Shown here: positions 59,182-63,634 of the stretch, in pieces
Numbering within the stretch: position 1 is the first letter of the stretch
Layout of the letters: each line of letters begins with the position of its first letter
DNA from: Acidobacteriota bacterium
Lineage (GTDB): Bacteria > Actinomycetota > AC-67
Assembly (NCBI GenBank): GCA_016208485.1
Contig: JACQXY010000008.1
Span: forward strand, 568 to 64,567
Direction of reading: 5' to 3'
Length of the DNA stretch: 64,000 nt
The notes under the pieces: model-generated
Database searches by the model: none
What the model was told of the DNA's origin: nothing
What the model saw: only the letters and a program-made list of their open reading frames with translations
Made by a program: the position numbers and the translations under genes

Positions 59182-59474
59182 GCCGGTTCTGGCCGGCGCG
59201 GGAGACTCCTCAACTCGACTACGAAGCTCTCCGGGAAGCGGCGATCGCCGGGGTGCCGCTTGCTGGCGAGGCGGCGGCGCGGTTCGAGGCGCGCGGGTTG
59301 GCTGGGCTCGTGTGCGCCAGGCCGGGCGAGTTGATCTTCGAAGCGGTGCTGCTCGGCGCACGCCGCCCCGCGTGGACGCCGTATGTCGATCCGCGCCTGG
59401 ATGCGCTGGCGGCTGGCTACGCGCTGCTGCTCGCCCACCCGGACCGCTCGCATCGCGAGGAGGTTCTCGTATGA
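59178..59474 (+). CDS. small protein of LSR element (orfB)
   Basis: MSRFWPARETPQLDYEALRE... ATGA overlaps with both neighbours. Confidence 0.75.
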   Translation: MSRFWPARETPQLDYEALREAAIAGVPLAGEAAARFEARGLAGLVCARPGELIFEAVLLGARRPAWTPYVDPRLDALAAGYALLLAHPDRSHREEVLV

Positions 59475-61666
59475 GAGTGGCGCTCTACGCGCGGGTCTCG
59501 ACCGAAGCGCAGGAGGCACGCGGCACGATAGGCTCGCAACTCGAGGTGCTGCGGACGCGGGTGCGGGCCGAAGGAGACGAGCTGGTGGCCGAGTTCATCG
59601 ACGATGGATACTCGGGAGCACGGCTTGACCGTCCCGGTCTTGACGCGCTGCGGGACGCGGCCGAGGCGCGCCTGATCGATGGGGTCTGGTGCCTCTCACC
59701 CGACCGGCTCGCGCGCGTCTACGCCTATCAGGTCATCGTATGCGACGAGCTGGCGCGACACGGGGTCGCGGTGCTGTTCTCCGACGCACCCCCAATCGGA
59801 GATGATCCGCAAGCGCGGCTGCTCACGCAGGTGCAGGGCGTCATCGCTGAATATGAGCGGGCGAAGATGGCCGAACGCTACCGGCGGGGCAAGCTTTGGC
59901 GGTCCAAAGAGGGTGAGGTCATCTCCTGGAAGGCACCATACGGGTATCGGCGCGTCTTGCGATCGGCCGGCAAACCGGCGCACCTTGACGTCTACGAACC
60001 CGAGGCCGTGGTCGTGCGGGAGATCTTCTCCGACTACGTCACCGGCGGTCATTCGATCCGTGAGATCACGCGACGGCTCAACGCTCGCGAGGTTCCCTCG
60101 CCGACCGGCAACCCGGTGTGGGGCACCTCAACCGTCTCACGGCTGCTGCGCAACGACGCCTACGTCGGATGCGTCTACTACAACCGCACCCAGGTCGCTT
60201 CGCCAACGAGGCCGGCAAAGCATCCGACCACACCACGTCCTCGGTCTCGCGAGGAGTGGATCGCCATCCCCGTGCCGCCCATCGTCGCCAGTGAGGTGTT
60301 CGAGGCGGCGGCTGGCGTGAGCCGTGACAACTCGAAGTGGAGTCCTCGCAATGCTGAGCCGGGCGTCTGGCTGCTCCGCGGGCTCGTCCGCTGCGGTGCG
60401 TGCGGCGTCGGGGTGAACTGCCACAGGATGCGAGGCCGAAACGGTACCACCCACCGCTACTACTACTGCCGCAACCACGATCCACTCCGCGCCGGAGGCG
60501 AGGACCGGCGCTGCCCCGAACGCAACGTTCGCGCCGACGCGCTTGACGCATTCGTCTTCGATCAGGTCCGTGAGGCGCTGCTCCGCCCCGAGACGCTCAT
60601 CGCCGGCGAAGCCGCGATCGGCGCACGTGCGCCTGCCACTGACGACGAGCTCTTGGCCACGCAACTGGAGCGTCTGGACCGCAAGCGCGACGCCACCGAA
60701 GCCGAGCGGCGTCGCCTCACCGACCTCTACCAGTCCGGCCTGGTCGAACTCAGCGAGATCAAACGCCGCGTCCACGAGATCGACGCGCGACGCCGTCAAC
60801 TCGACCAACAGCGATCCGCGCTGGCCGAACGGCACCGGGCCCTCGCACAGCACAACCGGCTGCGCCGACGCGTCGGCGAGTTCGCAACCCGCATTGCCCG
60901 CACCATCGACCGGCTCGATTTCGACGAGCGTCAACAACTCCTTCGACTCCTCGTCGAAGAAGTGCGCGTCGCCGGACATCGGGTTGAGATTCGGCTCCGC
61001 ATCCCCTTCGACGATCCGGAGAATGAACCGCCAACTCCCGATCATTCCCGCCGGCGGCAAGGACCGCGGAAGCCTTCGGACGGAGCGTCAAGGGAAGACC
61101 GTTTGCGTTCCTTCGGTGACCATCTACGGTGCGGGGTGGAACGCGCTGTACATCAAGGTTGGGTGAGCTTGACGCAGGAGGAGAGCCTGGCGGGCCGGGG
61201 GGGATCCAGGAGGATCCCCCCCGGCCCTGGCTCTCCTCCTGCTCCTTGCCGCGGCGCCGCTTCCGGCCCGAAGCGAGGGCCGCCCCGACTGCGAGAGCCC
61301 GAAGACCTGCCCCGTCTACCATCTCTATCAGCCGCCCATCCGCTGGCGCGCCGCGTCGGACGGAGTCGTGCGCATTCCCTACGACATCTTCCCTGTTCAG
61401 CCCAGGATGCCGGAGGATCGCGCGATCGCTGCCATCCGGGCGGCCGTGGCGACTTGGGAGGCCTACAACCCGAAGTTGCGCTTCGTCTATCTTGGGGTGC
61501 GGTCGACGCCCCCGTGGTCCGGCGACGGTCGGAACTCAATCGGTTTCGCGGATCCCATCATGACGGGCCTCCTACTGCCGACGTCGGTGGCCGGGCGCGC
61601 CGGGTGGTGGGTGCAGGAGGAGCCGTACATCAGTTGTCATGGGCGGCTGCGCACCCGGACGAATGA
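59471..61666 (+). CDS. large serine recombinase (reads through the right junction into host DNA)
   Basis: YARVSTEAQ catalytic Ser, DDGYSGARLDRPGL, PDRLAR, APYGY, Zn ribbon CGAC..YYYC, coiled coil. Recognisable homology ends at ..DRLRSFG (about 61117). Confidence 0.92.
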   Translation: MRVALYARVSTEAQEARGTIGSQLEVLRTRVRAEGDELVAEFIDDGYSGARLDRPGLDALRDAAEARLIDGVWCLSPDRLARVYAYQVIVCDELARHGVAVLFSDAPPIGDDPQARLLTQVQGVIAEYERAKMAERYRRGKLWRSKEGEVISWKAPYGYRRVLRSAGKPAHLDVYEPEAVVVREIFSDYVTGGHSIREITRRLNAREVPSPTGNPVWGTSTVSRLLRNDAYVGCVYYNRTQVASPTRPAKHPTTPRPRSREEWIAIPVPPIVASEVFEAAAGVSRDNSKWSPRNAEPGVWLLRGLVRCGACGVGVNCHRMRGRNGTTHRYYYCRNHDPLRAGGEDRRCPERNVRADALDAFVFDQVREALLRPETLIAGEAAIGARAPATDDELLATQLERLDRKRDATEAERRRLTDLYQSGLVELSEIKRRVHEIDARRRQLDQQRSALAERHRALAQHNRLRRRVGEFATRIARTIDRLDFDERQQLLRLLVEEVRVAGHRVEIRLRIPFDDPENEPPTPDHSRRRQGPRKPSDGASREDRLRSFGDHLRCGVERAVHQGWVSLTQEESLAGRGGSRRIPPGPGSPPAPCRGAASGPKRGPPRLREPEDLPRLPSLSAAHPLARRVGRSRAHSLRHLPCSAQDAGGSRDRCHPGGRGDLGGLQPEVALRLSWGAVDAPVVRRRSELNRFRGSHHDGPPTADVGGRARRVVGAGGAVHQLSWAAAHPDE
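61117..61166 (+). pseudogene. 3' part of the interrupted secreted protein
   Basis: (V)TIYGAGWNALYIKVG-stop, in frame with 58041-58467 after element removal (477 nt total). Confidence 0.65.
61163..61633 (+). pseudogene. 5' part of matrixin-like (M10) metalloprotease; frameshift at C7 tract and IS110 insertion
   Basis: Signal-like PALALLLLLAAAPLPARS, then IRW..IPYDI..AIRAAVATWE..LRFVYLG..DGRNSIGF. The start codon is one base out of frame. Confidence 0.7.
61192..61227. repeat. perfect 16-bp hairpin with G7/C7 tracts
   Basis: GGGCCGGGGGGGATCC-AGGA-GGATCCCCCCCGGCCC. Confidence 0.85.
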
Positions 61667-61704
61667 AAATGTGACCGCGGCCGGCTCGTGATCCATACTC
61701 TGCT

Positions 61705-61848
61705 CGTGTCGCCTTGACGACGCCGGTGTTTCCTTGGTGCCGGAAAGACCGAGCATCAGTTTGGCGCGGGAGCCTCGGGGCACCCACTACTGTTGCCGTG
61801 AGCACGGGACTCAGAGTCCTTCACGCAGAGGCTCCTCTTGGCGACACG
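61705..61848 (+). ncRNA. putative IS110 bridge RNA
   Basis: GTGACC-17nt-CATACT promoter (61671-61699). Closing stem CGTGTCGCC/GGCGACACG. Two stem-loops whose internal loops match the target (GTTTCCT, GCATCAG) and donor (ACTACT, GACTCAG) junction sequences. Confidence 0.7.
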
Positions 61849-61883
61849 CGCTGTCGGGTGTCGAGGGAGAGGAGGGGGTGTTC

Positions 61884-63128
61884 ATGCGGCGGCTCATCGA
61901 GCGCGTCTGCGGTCTGGACGTCCACAAGGACTCGGTCACCGCGTGCGTGCGGGTTCCGGGCCCGGGCGGGGAATCGCTGCAGGAGATCCGCACGTTCCAG
62001 GCGACCACCAGAGGCCTGCTTGCCTTGCGGGACTGGCTTGCCGCCCACAAGGTGACGCACGTGGCGATGGAGTCCACGGGGGTGTATTGGAAGAGGCCGT
62101 TCTTCTTGCTGGAGGACGAGTTCACCTGCTGGCTCATCAACGCCCAGCACATCAAGCGGGTCCCCGGCCGCAAGACCGATGTGGCCGATGCCGAGTGGAT
62201 CTGCGACCTCGCCCAGCACGGGCTCGTGCGCCCGAGCTTCGTTCCGCCGCGCGAGATCCGCGACCTGCGCGACCTCACCCGCTACCGCAAGGCCCTGGTG
62301 CAGGAGCGCACCCGGGAGGTGCAGCGCCTGGAGAAGGTTCTCCAGGACGCCGGCATCAAGCTCTCCTCGGTCGCCTCCAAGGTGCTCGGGGTCTCCGGGC
62401 GGGCGATGATCGAGGCGCTGTGTCGGGGTGGCACCGACCCTGAGGCGCTCGCCGAGCTCGCCAAGGGCAGGCTGCGGGCGAAGCTCCCCGCGCTCTGCGA
62501 GGCGCTCGAAGGATCGTTCCGGGCTCATCACGCGCTCATGGCCTCGCGCATCCTCGCCCACATCGACTACCTGGAGGAGAGCATCGAGGACATCTCCGGC
62601 GAGATCGAGCGGGCGATGGACCCTTTCGCTCGCCAGATTGAGCTGCTGGACTCGATCCCGGGCGTGGGCCGCAAAGCCGCCCAGATCATCCTCGCTGAGA
62701 TCGGCGTCGACATGAGCGGCGTCTTCCCCTCCGCCGGCCACCTCGCCTCCTGGGCGGGGATGTGCCCGGGCAACGACGAGTCGGGCGGCAAGCGCCGCTC
62801 GGGTCGCTCCCGCAAAGGCGACCGGCACCTGCGCGACATCCTCACCCAGGTCGCCTGGGCCGCCGTCCGCACCGAGGACAGCTACTACCGGGCCCAGTAC
62901 AACCGTCTCGCGCGCCATCTGGGCAAGAAGAAGGCGATCAAGGCCGTCGGCCACTCGATCCTCGTCGCGATCTATCACATCCTCTCCGAAGGCGTGCCCC
63001 ACCAGGATCTCGGCGCCGACTACTTCACCCGGCGCGACAACCCCGCCGCGCACACTCGACGCCTCGTCCGCCAACTCGAGGGCTTGGGTCACAAGGTCAC
63101 CCTCGAACCCCTCGCCGAGTCCGCCTGA
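61884..63128 (+). CDS. IS110 DEDD recombinase/transposase
   Basis: GLDVHK, AMESTG, RKTDVADA, SIPGVG, CPGNDESGGK catalytic Ser. GAGGAGG RBS. Confidence 0.95.
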   Translation: MRRLIERVCGLDVHKDSVTACVRVPGPGGESLQEIRTFQATTRGLLALRDWLAAHKVTHVAMESTGVYWKRPFFLLEDEFTCWLINAQHIKRVPGRKTDVADAEWICDLAQHGLVRPSFVPPREIRDLRDLTRYRKALVQERTREVQRLEKVLQDAGIKLSSVASKVLGVSGRAMIEALCRGGTDPEALAELAKGRLRAKLPALCEALEGSFRAHHALMASRILAHIDYLEESIEDISGEIERAMDPFARQIELLDSIPGVGRKAAQIILAEIGVDMSGVFPSAGHLASWAGMCPGNDESGGKRRSGRSRKGDRHLRDILTQVAWAAVRTEDSYYRAQYNRLARHLGKKKAIKAVGHSILVAIYHILSEGVPHQDLGADYFTRRDNPAAHTRRLVRQLEGLGHKVTLEPLAESA

Positions 63129-63180
63129 CCGCATCCCGACCCGACCTGGGAGGTGATGTCACCGACTATTTTCGACTCAG

Positions 63181-63634
63181 GGAGTCCGACATCTGGCTGA
63201 ACATATCTACGAACTGGACGTGGGACCCCTGCCCGCCGCGCGACGGCACCTGCGCGGACGTGCCCCAGGAACCCTTCGGGAGTCTCGGTGTGGGAGCCAT
63301 TCTCCACGCCTGGGCCACCCCCGTCGCCCAAATGGATCTTCAGGGGGTGACCGCTCATGAACTGGGGCACATGCTCGGGCTCGACCACACGAACGAGGCG
63401 CCATATTGCGTGCTCACCATGTGGGGTGGACCCACGGAGAACGATTCCCAGCGGCAGTGTCTGTCAGGTGGTTTCCGACACCAGTCTTCCCTCGCCCTCG
63501 GAGACGTCCTCGGCGCGCGCGCTCTCTACCCTTGGCGGTGCCCGACGCTTGCGAAGGGAACCGCCCGACTGCGCTCGAGCTACTTGCCGGCCTGGCGCCG
63601 AGTCTGCCCGACGATCCAGATCTTCGCGCCCTGA
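63181..63634 (+). pseudogene. 3' part of matrixin-like metalloprotease
   Basis: ESDIWLN..DLQGVTAHELGHMLGLDH (HExxHxxGxxH), Met-turn LTMW, LALGDVLGARALYP. Confidence 0.82.

Follow-up and report, generated by a model that had tools for sequence, protein, structure and literature searches.

How does an insertion sequence (IS) find its target when the strands of its guide RNA appear to address the two DNA strands in the reverse of the expected order? This question is raised by an element of the IS110 family that lies in a 64,000-nucleotide (nt) stretch of DNA (the window; positions 568 to 64,567 of the forward strand of contig JACQXY010000008.1, GenBank assembly GCA_016208485.1) from a bacterium recorded as Acidobacteriota and placed by GTDB in the Actinomycetota (AC-67). 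A preliminary description of the window had proposed that the left end of this element encodes a bridge RNA whose target and donor guides can be read from the letters. Having followed the proposal up in relatives of the element, we consider it likely that this is an intact IS with a left-end bridge RNA on the recombinase strand, which would work by a mechanism like that of IS621 with its polarity mirrored.

Bridge recombinases are under development as programmable tools for genome rearrangement, and nearly all of their programming rules derive from IS621 and its near relatives; for a widespread clade whose bridge RNA lies upstream but has the opposite strand order, the rules would have to be different. 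According to the text of the IS621 studies, this element is laid out as left end (LE), gene and right end (RE) with CT at both boundaries on the recombinase strand (Durrant 2024; Nature 2026), and in IS621 and ISEc21 the 5' loop strands of the RNA pair with the bottom strand (left target and left donor) and the top strand (right target and right donor) falls to the 3' strands (Durrant 2024; Siddiquee 2024). In the accessible part of Hiraizumi 2024, the core is given as CT with a near-invariant T - GT, AT and TT being tolerated - and the handshake guides as the two bases 3' of the core-pairing bases (right target guide, RTG).

An intact IS110-family element

The element consists of a left end of 250 nt, a right end of 52 nt and one long open reading frame on the + strand between them. 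Its product matches DEDD_Tnp_IS110 (PF01548, 2.6e-33) and Transposase_20 (PF02371, 5.7e-24), which confirms the family assignment of the preliminary description, and among PDB entries it shows distant similarity to the transposases of IS621 and ISCro4 (E about 3e-17). The motifs GLDV, MESTG, KTDVADA and DSIPGVG align with the corresponding IS621 segments and, going by the residue numbers in the text of Hiraizumi 2024, probably hold the DEDD and Ser catalytic residues. As is expected of the IS110 family in the ISfinder sense, we found a DEDD transposase, no terminal inverted repeats and only the core common to the junctions.

The boundaries were placed on an uninterrupted paralog of the gene into which the element has inserted. 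This paralog lies in the same genome (contig 8, bases 630-1325, locus L090) and has 75% amino acid identity over the left fragment. Nucleotide alignments to it end at base 897 for the left flank and start at base 895 for the right one and, because the two flanks meet edge to edge on paralog bases 895-897, the element measures 1,547 bp. Joined without a gap, the flanks encode ..PYI(R)ESDIW.., and the paralog reads ..GYITESDIV... The junctions are ...GTACATCAG|TTGTCATGG on the left and ...TTTTCGACTCAG|GGAGTCC on the right; TCAG is common to both and leaves the boundary ambiguous within 4 nt. By comparison with the paralog the insertion took place without a long target duplication, AG (at most TCAG) being all that the two junctions have in common. 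All strings quoted in the preliminary description were checked one by one and found in their places.

A conserved two-loop RNA upstream of the recombinase gene

From a scan of one genome per species, 575 recombinase relatives were confirmed, the best 80 of which (46-64% identity) were kept and have upstream regions that align over about 140 nt. For these a structure was written manually, with six helices and 33 pairs arranged as an outer stem (P1) and two stem-loops, both with an internal loop and the second also with a bulge, and was tested on 30 sequences. It replaced an RNAalifold fold of the MAFFT alignment, a check suggested by the preliminary description that succeeded in part: 21 pairs were recovered, the outer stem was missed through gap placement and the result was not used.

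The 33 pairs are formed at 88.6% across the 30 sequences, compared with 80.3% in shuffles and 35-53% when the structure is slid along the alignment, and 26 of them show compensatory changes on both sides where shuffles give 14.5; none of 500 shuffles reach the observed values. In the window P1 is a perfect 9-bp stem of CGTGTCGCC (61705-61713) with GGCGACACG (61840-61848). Helices 2 and 3, the basal and apical stems of the target loop, are 100% and 96% paired with compensatory changes, and such changes occur in all 8 pairs of P4, the helix of the donor loop that joins GGAGCCTC (61769-61776) to GAGGCTCC (61828-61835). Two pairs are invariantly G-U (30 of 30 sequences each), which suggests that the RNA has the sequence of the + strand. 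A two-loop RNA at 61705-61848, as proposed for the left end, is thus borne out by the compensatory changes and by the covariance model R1 described below. For the first of its two hairpins, CGCCGG (61721-61726) with TTGGCG (61761-61766), the inner 4 bp have the backing of the family, and the outer two, both G-U, coincide with positions of guide and handshake.

R1, which was built from 30 relatives, matches 76 of 81 related loci; those missed are L002, a 330-nt partial relative, L024, which comes without upstream DNA, L049, L061 and L064. The window, and with it the whole genome, has a single match of 112 bits, at 61708-61845. Elsewhere it is found in 10 of 151 sampled genomes of the phylum, in up to 7 copies each (a tally that includes the genome of the window and one unpublished genome), and it has no match in 10 other genomes of the host's own family. 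Such a distribution fits horizontal acquisition. The clade is also present in records of Bacillota, Chloroflexota and Acidobacteriota.

Other searches were less telling. An Rfam scan of 61400-63400 at E up to 10 returned four chance-level matches (E 2.3-7.4, far below gathering scores), none of them in 61634-61883, and minimum free energy folds of the single sequence (61695-61885 and 61634-61885) give other structures, with z of -2.1 and -1.7. As for expression, the preliminary description had placed a promoter directly before the RNA (GTGACC, 61671-61676, 17 nt, CATACT, 61694-61699). We would not uphold it: the site sits between a conserved box and the outer stem, in a spacer that varies in length and is not conserved in sequence (the distance from tip to RNA, of which it is part, ranges from 44 to 131 nt among relatives), and a promoter and terminator scan of 61500-63300 found neither, with no sigma-70-like site and the proposed motif below threshold.

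Loop strands that follow the flanks and ends

Four loop strands, two for each loop, were taken from the model alignment and compared with the flanks and ends of the elements. Within the window alone the matches are only suggestive, because CATCAG and GACTCAG arise in 60 and 72 of 2,000 dinucleotide shuffles of the left end, which is about 3% each; they gain their weight from the relatives.

The 3' strand of the target loop reads the left target, as the preliminary description had claimed for GCATCAG (61753-61759). It agrees with the left flank of its own element without a mismatch in 39 of 68 loci and with one mismatch in another 20, the non-cognate mean being 3.2 mismatches, and the observed mean is reached in 0 of 20,000 permutations. 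By column, identity is 0.91-0.97 for positions -7 to -3 of the left target (LT-7..-3) and 0.92 and 0.90 for the two bases with which the element opens (LE+1, LE+2). The latter two columns belong to a 2-nt handshake guide (61760-61761) that had been overlooked before.

In some relatives the left flank resembles the right-end tip of another member (TTTC-N5-AG). This applies to L014, L025, L029, L032, L034, L057, L059 and L033, which seem either to have been guided into the ends of related elements or to follow such ends in tandem. A foreign right-end tip of this kind is what the target guide of the Bacillus loci, ATGGTAG, matches.

The 5' strand of the target loop addresses the right target on the other strand, which had been claimed for GTTTCCT (61728-61734) and holds in the family. 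The right junction was fixed for this purpose by the donor guide, and loci with an unplaceable right end (L012, L022, L038, L047, L063) or short of flank were excluded. Over 64 loci the anchored run of complementary bases averages 2.8 against 1.53, a value that 0 of 20,000 permutations reach, and the signal forms an antiparallel diagonal over five consecutive columns with complementarities of 0.44-0.50 where 0.23-0.27 is expected.

The 3' strand of the donor loop, finally, reads the right-end tip. The claim had been made for GACTCAG (61808-61814) and stands, seeing that 7-8 of 8 positions match in 71 of 77 rows, with identities of 0.92-1.0 for RE-7..-3. The junction that this strand indicates coincides with a guide-independent motif, TTTC-N5-A[G/A], which closes most relatives. 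For the donor-loop handshake, comparison with the first two bases of the right target (RT+1, RT+2) gave a weak signal (0.38 vs 0.32 and 0.37 vs 0.25).

Polarity of the core

With the junctions in place, the core dinucleotide can be compared across the clade. On the sense strand, the left junctions of relatives have AG in 55 cases, AA in 5, AC in 2 and AT in 1 (n=63), and the right junctions AG in 62, AA in 8 and AC in 2 (n=72). The A is invariant at the right junctions; therefore a near-invariant T lies on the antisense strand, where it parallels the T of the IS621 core. That the CT core would be found on the strand opposite the recombinase gene had been proposed for this one element and proves true of the clade as a whole. 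Judging from these sequences, the polarity of the clade is the mirror image of that of IS621: relative to the gene, the loop strands address swapped DNA strands. The IS621-type rule - 5' strand to bottom, 3' strand to top, CT on the recombinase strand - is contradicted in the clade, where the order is reversed.

Beyond the dinucleotide itself, the two bases before the core tend to agree between left target and right-end tip (0.52 vs 0.29 expected), and in about half of the elements the effective common core is 4 bp, like the TCAG at 61630-61633 and 63177-63180.

Table 1. Positions of the element, its predicted RNA and the gene it interrupts (window coordinates)
Feature	Position	Strand	Basis or detail
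Insertion sequence of the IS110 family, 1,547 bp	61634..63180	+	edge-to-edge flank alignment on uninterrupted paralog
Core dinucleotide AG (CT on opposite strand)	61632..61633; second copy 63179-63180	+	junctions of relatives
Left copy of subterminal inverted repeat, GAAAAT	61665..61670	+	within conserved ATGAAAATG box; inverted repeat of RE -13..-8
Bridge RNA, P1 to its partner	61705..61848	+	covariance model R1; predicted span
Target-binding loop	61721..61766	+	basal stem 61721-61724/61763-61766; apical stem 61735-61740/61747-61751
5' target guide, GUUUC-CU	61728..61734	+	GUUUC complements sense right target +5..+1; CU pairs with core AG
3' target guide, GCAUC-AG-UU	61753..61761	+	GCAUC = sense left target -7..-3; AG = core; UU = handshake = first two bases of element
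Donor-binding loop	61769..61835	+	P4 61769-61776/61828-61835; P5 61778-61780/61817-61819; P6 61792-61796/61802-61805
5' strand of donor loop, CACCCACUACU	61781..61791	+	ends in CU opposite core; variable part not reading left-end tip
3' donor guide, GACUC-AG	61808..61816	+	GACUC = right-end tip -7..-3; AG = core; next AG in handshake position
Recombinase gene, 414 amino acids (aa), intact	61884..63128	+	ATG to stop; Pfam PF01548, PF02371
Right-end tip	63168..63180	+	ATTTTC 63168-63173 (right repeat copy), then GACTC, then AG
Matrixin-like gene, interrupted	5' fragment 61368..61633; 3' fragment 63181-63634	+	paralog alignment

Proposed mechanism and the points that weigh against it

In the mechanism that we propose, the complex of recombinase and RNA would synapse the circle junction, ..GACTC-AG-TTGTC.., with the target, ..GCATC-AG-GAAAC... 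The antisense strand of the left target would be the pairing partner of the target loop's 3' strand, whose last 2 nt would serve as handshake guide for the incoming donor strand, and the 5' strand of that loop (5 nt plus CU) would pair with the sense strand of AG and the right flank. Strand exchange may then take place at the dinucleotide, as it does in IS621. The chemically 'top' strand, which carries the [C/T/G]T core, would in this case be the strand opposite the recombinase gene, as though the module of RNA plus recombinase had been inverted relative to the recombination site when compared with IS621.

Several points speak against such a mechanism or lower its weight. One of the four guide interactions expected from IS621 appears to be missing, namely that of the 5' donor strand with the left-end tip. 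Over 59 relatives the two agree at 1.95 of 7 positions compared with 1.68 for non-cognate pairs (266 of 20,000 permutations at least equal the observed value), and they match only at the A-C-U adjoining the core. The preliminary description had named ACTACT (61786-61791) as guide to this tip, a role we can not support; in the covariation of its four proposed guides, three segments track flanks or ends across the family and this one shows no such relation to the left-end tip. Simple tip pairing would not account for recognition of the donor on its left-end side. The right-target guide, in addition, matches partly, with 46.5% Watson-Crick pairs over its five positions (24.2% for non-cognate pairs). 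The left junctions of the relatives were placed by the target guide itself, which inflates the column identities and is controlled for by the permutation test. As the genome holds one copy, there are no multiple insertions of the same element whose sites could be compared with its guides, and contigs from four DNA runs of one groundwater study gave no circle-junction or empty-site read and no joint across the element, though contigs cannot show absence. Existence and ends of the bridge RNA are deduced from sequence. And that the top strand of IS621 is the recombinase strand, on which our talk of a mirror image depends, was drawn from the text of the IS621 papers, apart from their figures.

Wobble pairing or half-match insertion

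By the rule of the family, the ideal target of the element would be (A)GCATC-AG-GAAAC(AC), from which the ideal site of the preliminary description, (G)CATCAG|GAAAC, follows. The site it occupies is ACATC-AG-GGAGT. Against the guides, the left half has 4 of 5 Watson-Crick positions and one G-T opposition; the right half runs Watson-Crick, wobble, Watson-Crick, wobble, wobble, which makes 2 of 5 matches plus three of wobble type. It had been suggested that a wobble-paired, non-ideal target was used here. This holds for the window, where all three right-half mismatches are wobbles, and does not extend to the family, in which wobble is not enriched.

Insertion into a half match (off-target), directed by the left-target guide and the core with the three right-side wobbles a coincidence, explains the site just as well, and we would give the two accounts roughly equal chances. 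In the family, over 65 relatives, the wobble share of non-Watson-Crick positions is 0.19 for cognate and 0.193 for non-cognate pairs (2,710 of 5,000 permutations at least equal the observed value), and right-target matches are typically partial. Moreover, the accessible text of 2026 preprints reports that half matches are, of all boundary configurations, the one most enriched in natural IS110 loci, and that they drive off-target insertion. Set against this is the fact that three wobbles in three mismatches would have a chance of roughly 0.7% at the family rate, provided that mismatches are random, and that rG-dT pairs are present in the IS621 structure, as stated in the part of Hiraizumi 2024 at hand.

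Donor loop and subterminal inverted repeat

If the 5' donor strand does not read the left-end tip, what does it follow? Instead of the tip, it tracks a subterminal site in the left end: in relatives, its variable part (61785-61790 in the window) repeats, in the same sense, the left-end segment that directly precedes the ATGAAAAT box. The two align locally with a score of 13.55 against 8.9 for non-cognate pairs (n=53; 0 of 20,000 permutations) along a parallel column diagonal, and the reverse-complement control is flat (7.26 vs 7.23). A search of each element for a reverse-complement partner of the strand gave no consistent site. In the window itself, strand and segment share only GCACCC (61651-61656).

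The box next to this segment belongs to a subterminal inverted repeat that the preliminary description had missed. In 59 relatives ATGAAAAT(G) at LE +32..+41 pairs with RE -14..-7 over a median length of 8, and the repeat covaries in variant elements. Its length is typically 6-9 bp in the clade and 26 bp in L070/L071; beyond it the element extends by 7 bp at the right end and by about 31 bp at the left.

These observations lead us to a tentative idea, which we hold to be rather improbable: both strands of the donor loop may pair with one and the same strand of a circle junction that has folded up, departing from the two-strand rule of IS621, and the clade would then represent a third architecture between IS110 and IS1111. 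The 3' donor strand would pair with the antisense right-end tip and the 5' donor strand with the antisense subterminal left-end segment beside the inverted repeat, the stem of the repeat together with a left-end palindrome bringing tip and segment into each other's vicinity.

Interrupted gene and surroundings

The gene in which the element lies is matrixin-like. Its 3' (right) fragment has a Peptidase_M10 match (4.6e-06) and contains HELGH. Its paralog on contig 8 is intact, with an open frame of 601 aa and, given this, the function of the matrixin-like peptidase has perhaps not been lost. For the host genome, the insertion is an ordinary event, in which one horizontally acquired IS has disrupted one of two paralogous matrixin-like genes. 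In this genome (2.66 Mb, 86 contigs) the element is single copy by DNA search, with R1 and PF01548 giving 1 match each; the DNA search brought up one more stretch, 330 nt at 73% identity.

Four groundwater runs yielded contigs with the same insertion, in which up to 13 bases differ over 1.8 kb. Variants lie at 61748, at 62094-62096 and in 15 other places. The one at 61748 (A>G) falls in the apical stem of the target loop, where the window has a G-A mismatch, and does not restore the pair. Two contigs, from one run each, bear on the boundaries: one stops exactly at 63180, and another departs from the left flank of the window at 61628, where it joins the element to a different 24-nt left flank with a G preceding CATCAG, in agreement with guide base G61753 (n=1). 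Such single contigs weakly favour a second insertion site and a right boundary at 63180.

Further upstream, a long open reading frame at 59312-61130 appears to begin with a serine-recombinase-like N-terminus (..VALYARVSTEAQ..). Element and peptidase gene may perhaps lie in or beside another mobile region.

Alternative readings

Of the other alternatives to our reading, the one that fares best leaves the mechanism untouched and would alter only where the clade is filed and how new it is. The clade may be of the IS1111 type with its non-coding region (NCR) moved upstream, having inherited the strand order and the repeats. We doubt this, albeit with some points in its favour. In the tested IS1111 seekRNAs, the match to the top strand precedes, on the 5' side, the match to the bottom strand; this reverses the order of the IS110-type ISEc21 (text of Siddiquee 2024) and is the order we find here. 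The same source, as far as its main text goes, mentions a few IS1111 relatives (ISMtsp17) with an upstream NCR, and gives IS1111 elements subterminal inverted repeats of 7-17 bp (in most cases 11-13) that are extended by 7 bp at the left and 3 bp at the right, which may be compared with the repeat of 6-9 bp (26 bp in L070/L071) and the 7-bp right-end extension of the clade. What argues for a separate position is that the repeat is shorter than is usual in IS1111, that the extensions (left about 31 bp, right 7 bp) depart from the 7 bp and 3 bp of IS1111, that the recombinase has 414 aa compared with the about 340 aa reported for IS1111 transposases (Siddiquee 2024, main text) and that the RNA has the simple fold with two internal loops known from the IS110 group.

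Far less credit can be given to a canonical IS621 geometry, in which the core would be another dinucleotide of TCAG on the recombinase strand and the loop strands would keep their usual roles. In a single element TC, CA and AG are each a possible crossover within the common TCAG. The relatives decide against it: their 3' strand carries left-flank sequence and their 5' strand complements the right flank, the conserved dinucleotide at the junctions is A[G/A/C] and, as in IS621, CU stands at the end of the 5' loop strands and AG within the 3' ones, which fits only the antisense CT strand. Least credible of all is that the left-end fold, for all its conservation, has no guide function, serving only as mRNA leader or as a binding site for the recombinase, and matches the flanks by chance, since, short as the window matches are (each in about 3% of shuffles) and although the RNA was reasoned out from sequence, the loop strands track flanks or ends in relatives of 46-64% identity with 0 of 20,000 permutations in three separate tests.

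Comparison with known systems

Our preferred reading, an IS621-like mechanism of mirrored polarity, places the element close to the IS621/ISEc21 type in its general plan. Both have a DEDD recombinase with RuvC-like and Tnp domains, and in both the left end, which lies upstream of the gene, is long and the right end short. Their RNAs contain two internal loops, one for the target followed by one for the donor; the 5' strand of each loop finishes with CU, and the 3' strands hold AG and then a 2-nt handshake. At either boundary lies a dinucleotide core in which one base is near-invariant. The differences from IS621 lie in what the strands address: here the 3' strands copy the sense left target and right-end tip, the sense right target has its complement in the 5' target strand, the CT-type core is antisense and the 5' donor strand of the clade does not appear to read the tip of the element. 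To this add the 6-9-bp subterminal inverted repeat of the clade and a recombinase of 414 aa rather than 328 aa, with similarity to that of IS621 at E about 3e-17.

With the IS1111 type the clade has in common that the top-strand match lies 5' of the bottom-strand match, and its subterminal inverted repeats, with a 7-bp terminal extension at one end, resemble those of that type in part. It differs in that its RNA lies upstream of the recombinase gene (in the window and the 76 relatives matched by R1) and not downstream, in a simple two-loop fold in place of a multi-loop donor site and in its longer protein, shorter repeat and 31-bp extension at the other end.

The strand order is already known from IS1111 seekRNAs, and the clade is a variant architecture of a known system. 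No account of such a clade turned up in the literature searched - the large surveys may show one in their figures and supplements, which lay outside the search - and the accessible text of Vaysset 2024, of a 2026 preprint on a language-model atlas and of a 2026 preprint on 'large IS110 elements' makes no mention of a reversed polarity. From the sequences at hand, the clade appears to combine the RNA location and fold of the IS110 group with an IS1111-like strand order and repeat, in an element whose protein is longer than either, and so it may show how the IS110 and IS1111 arrangements are related.

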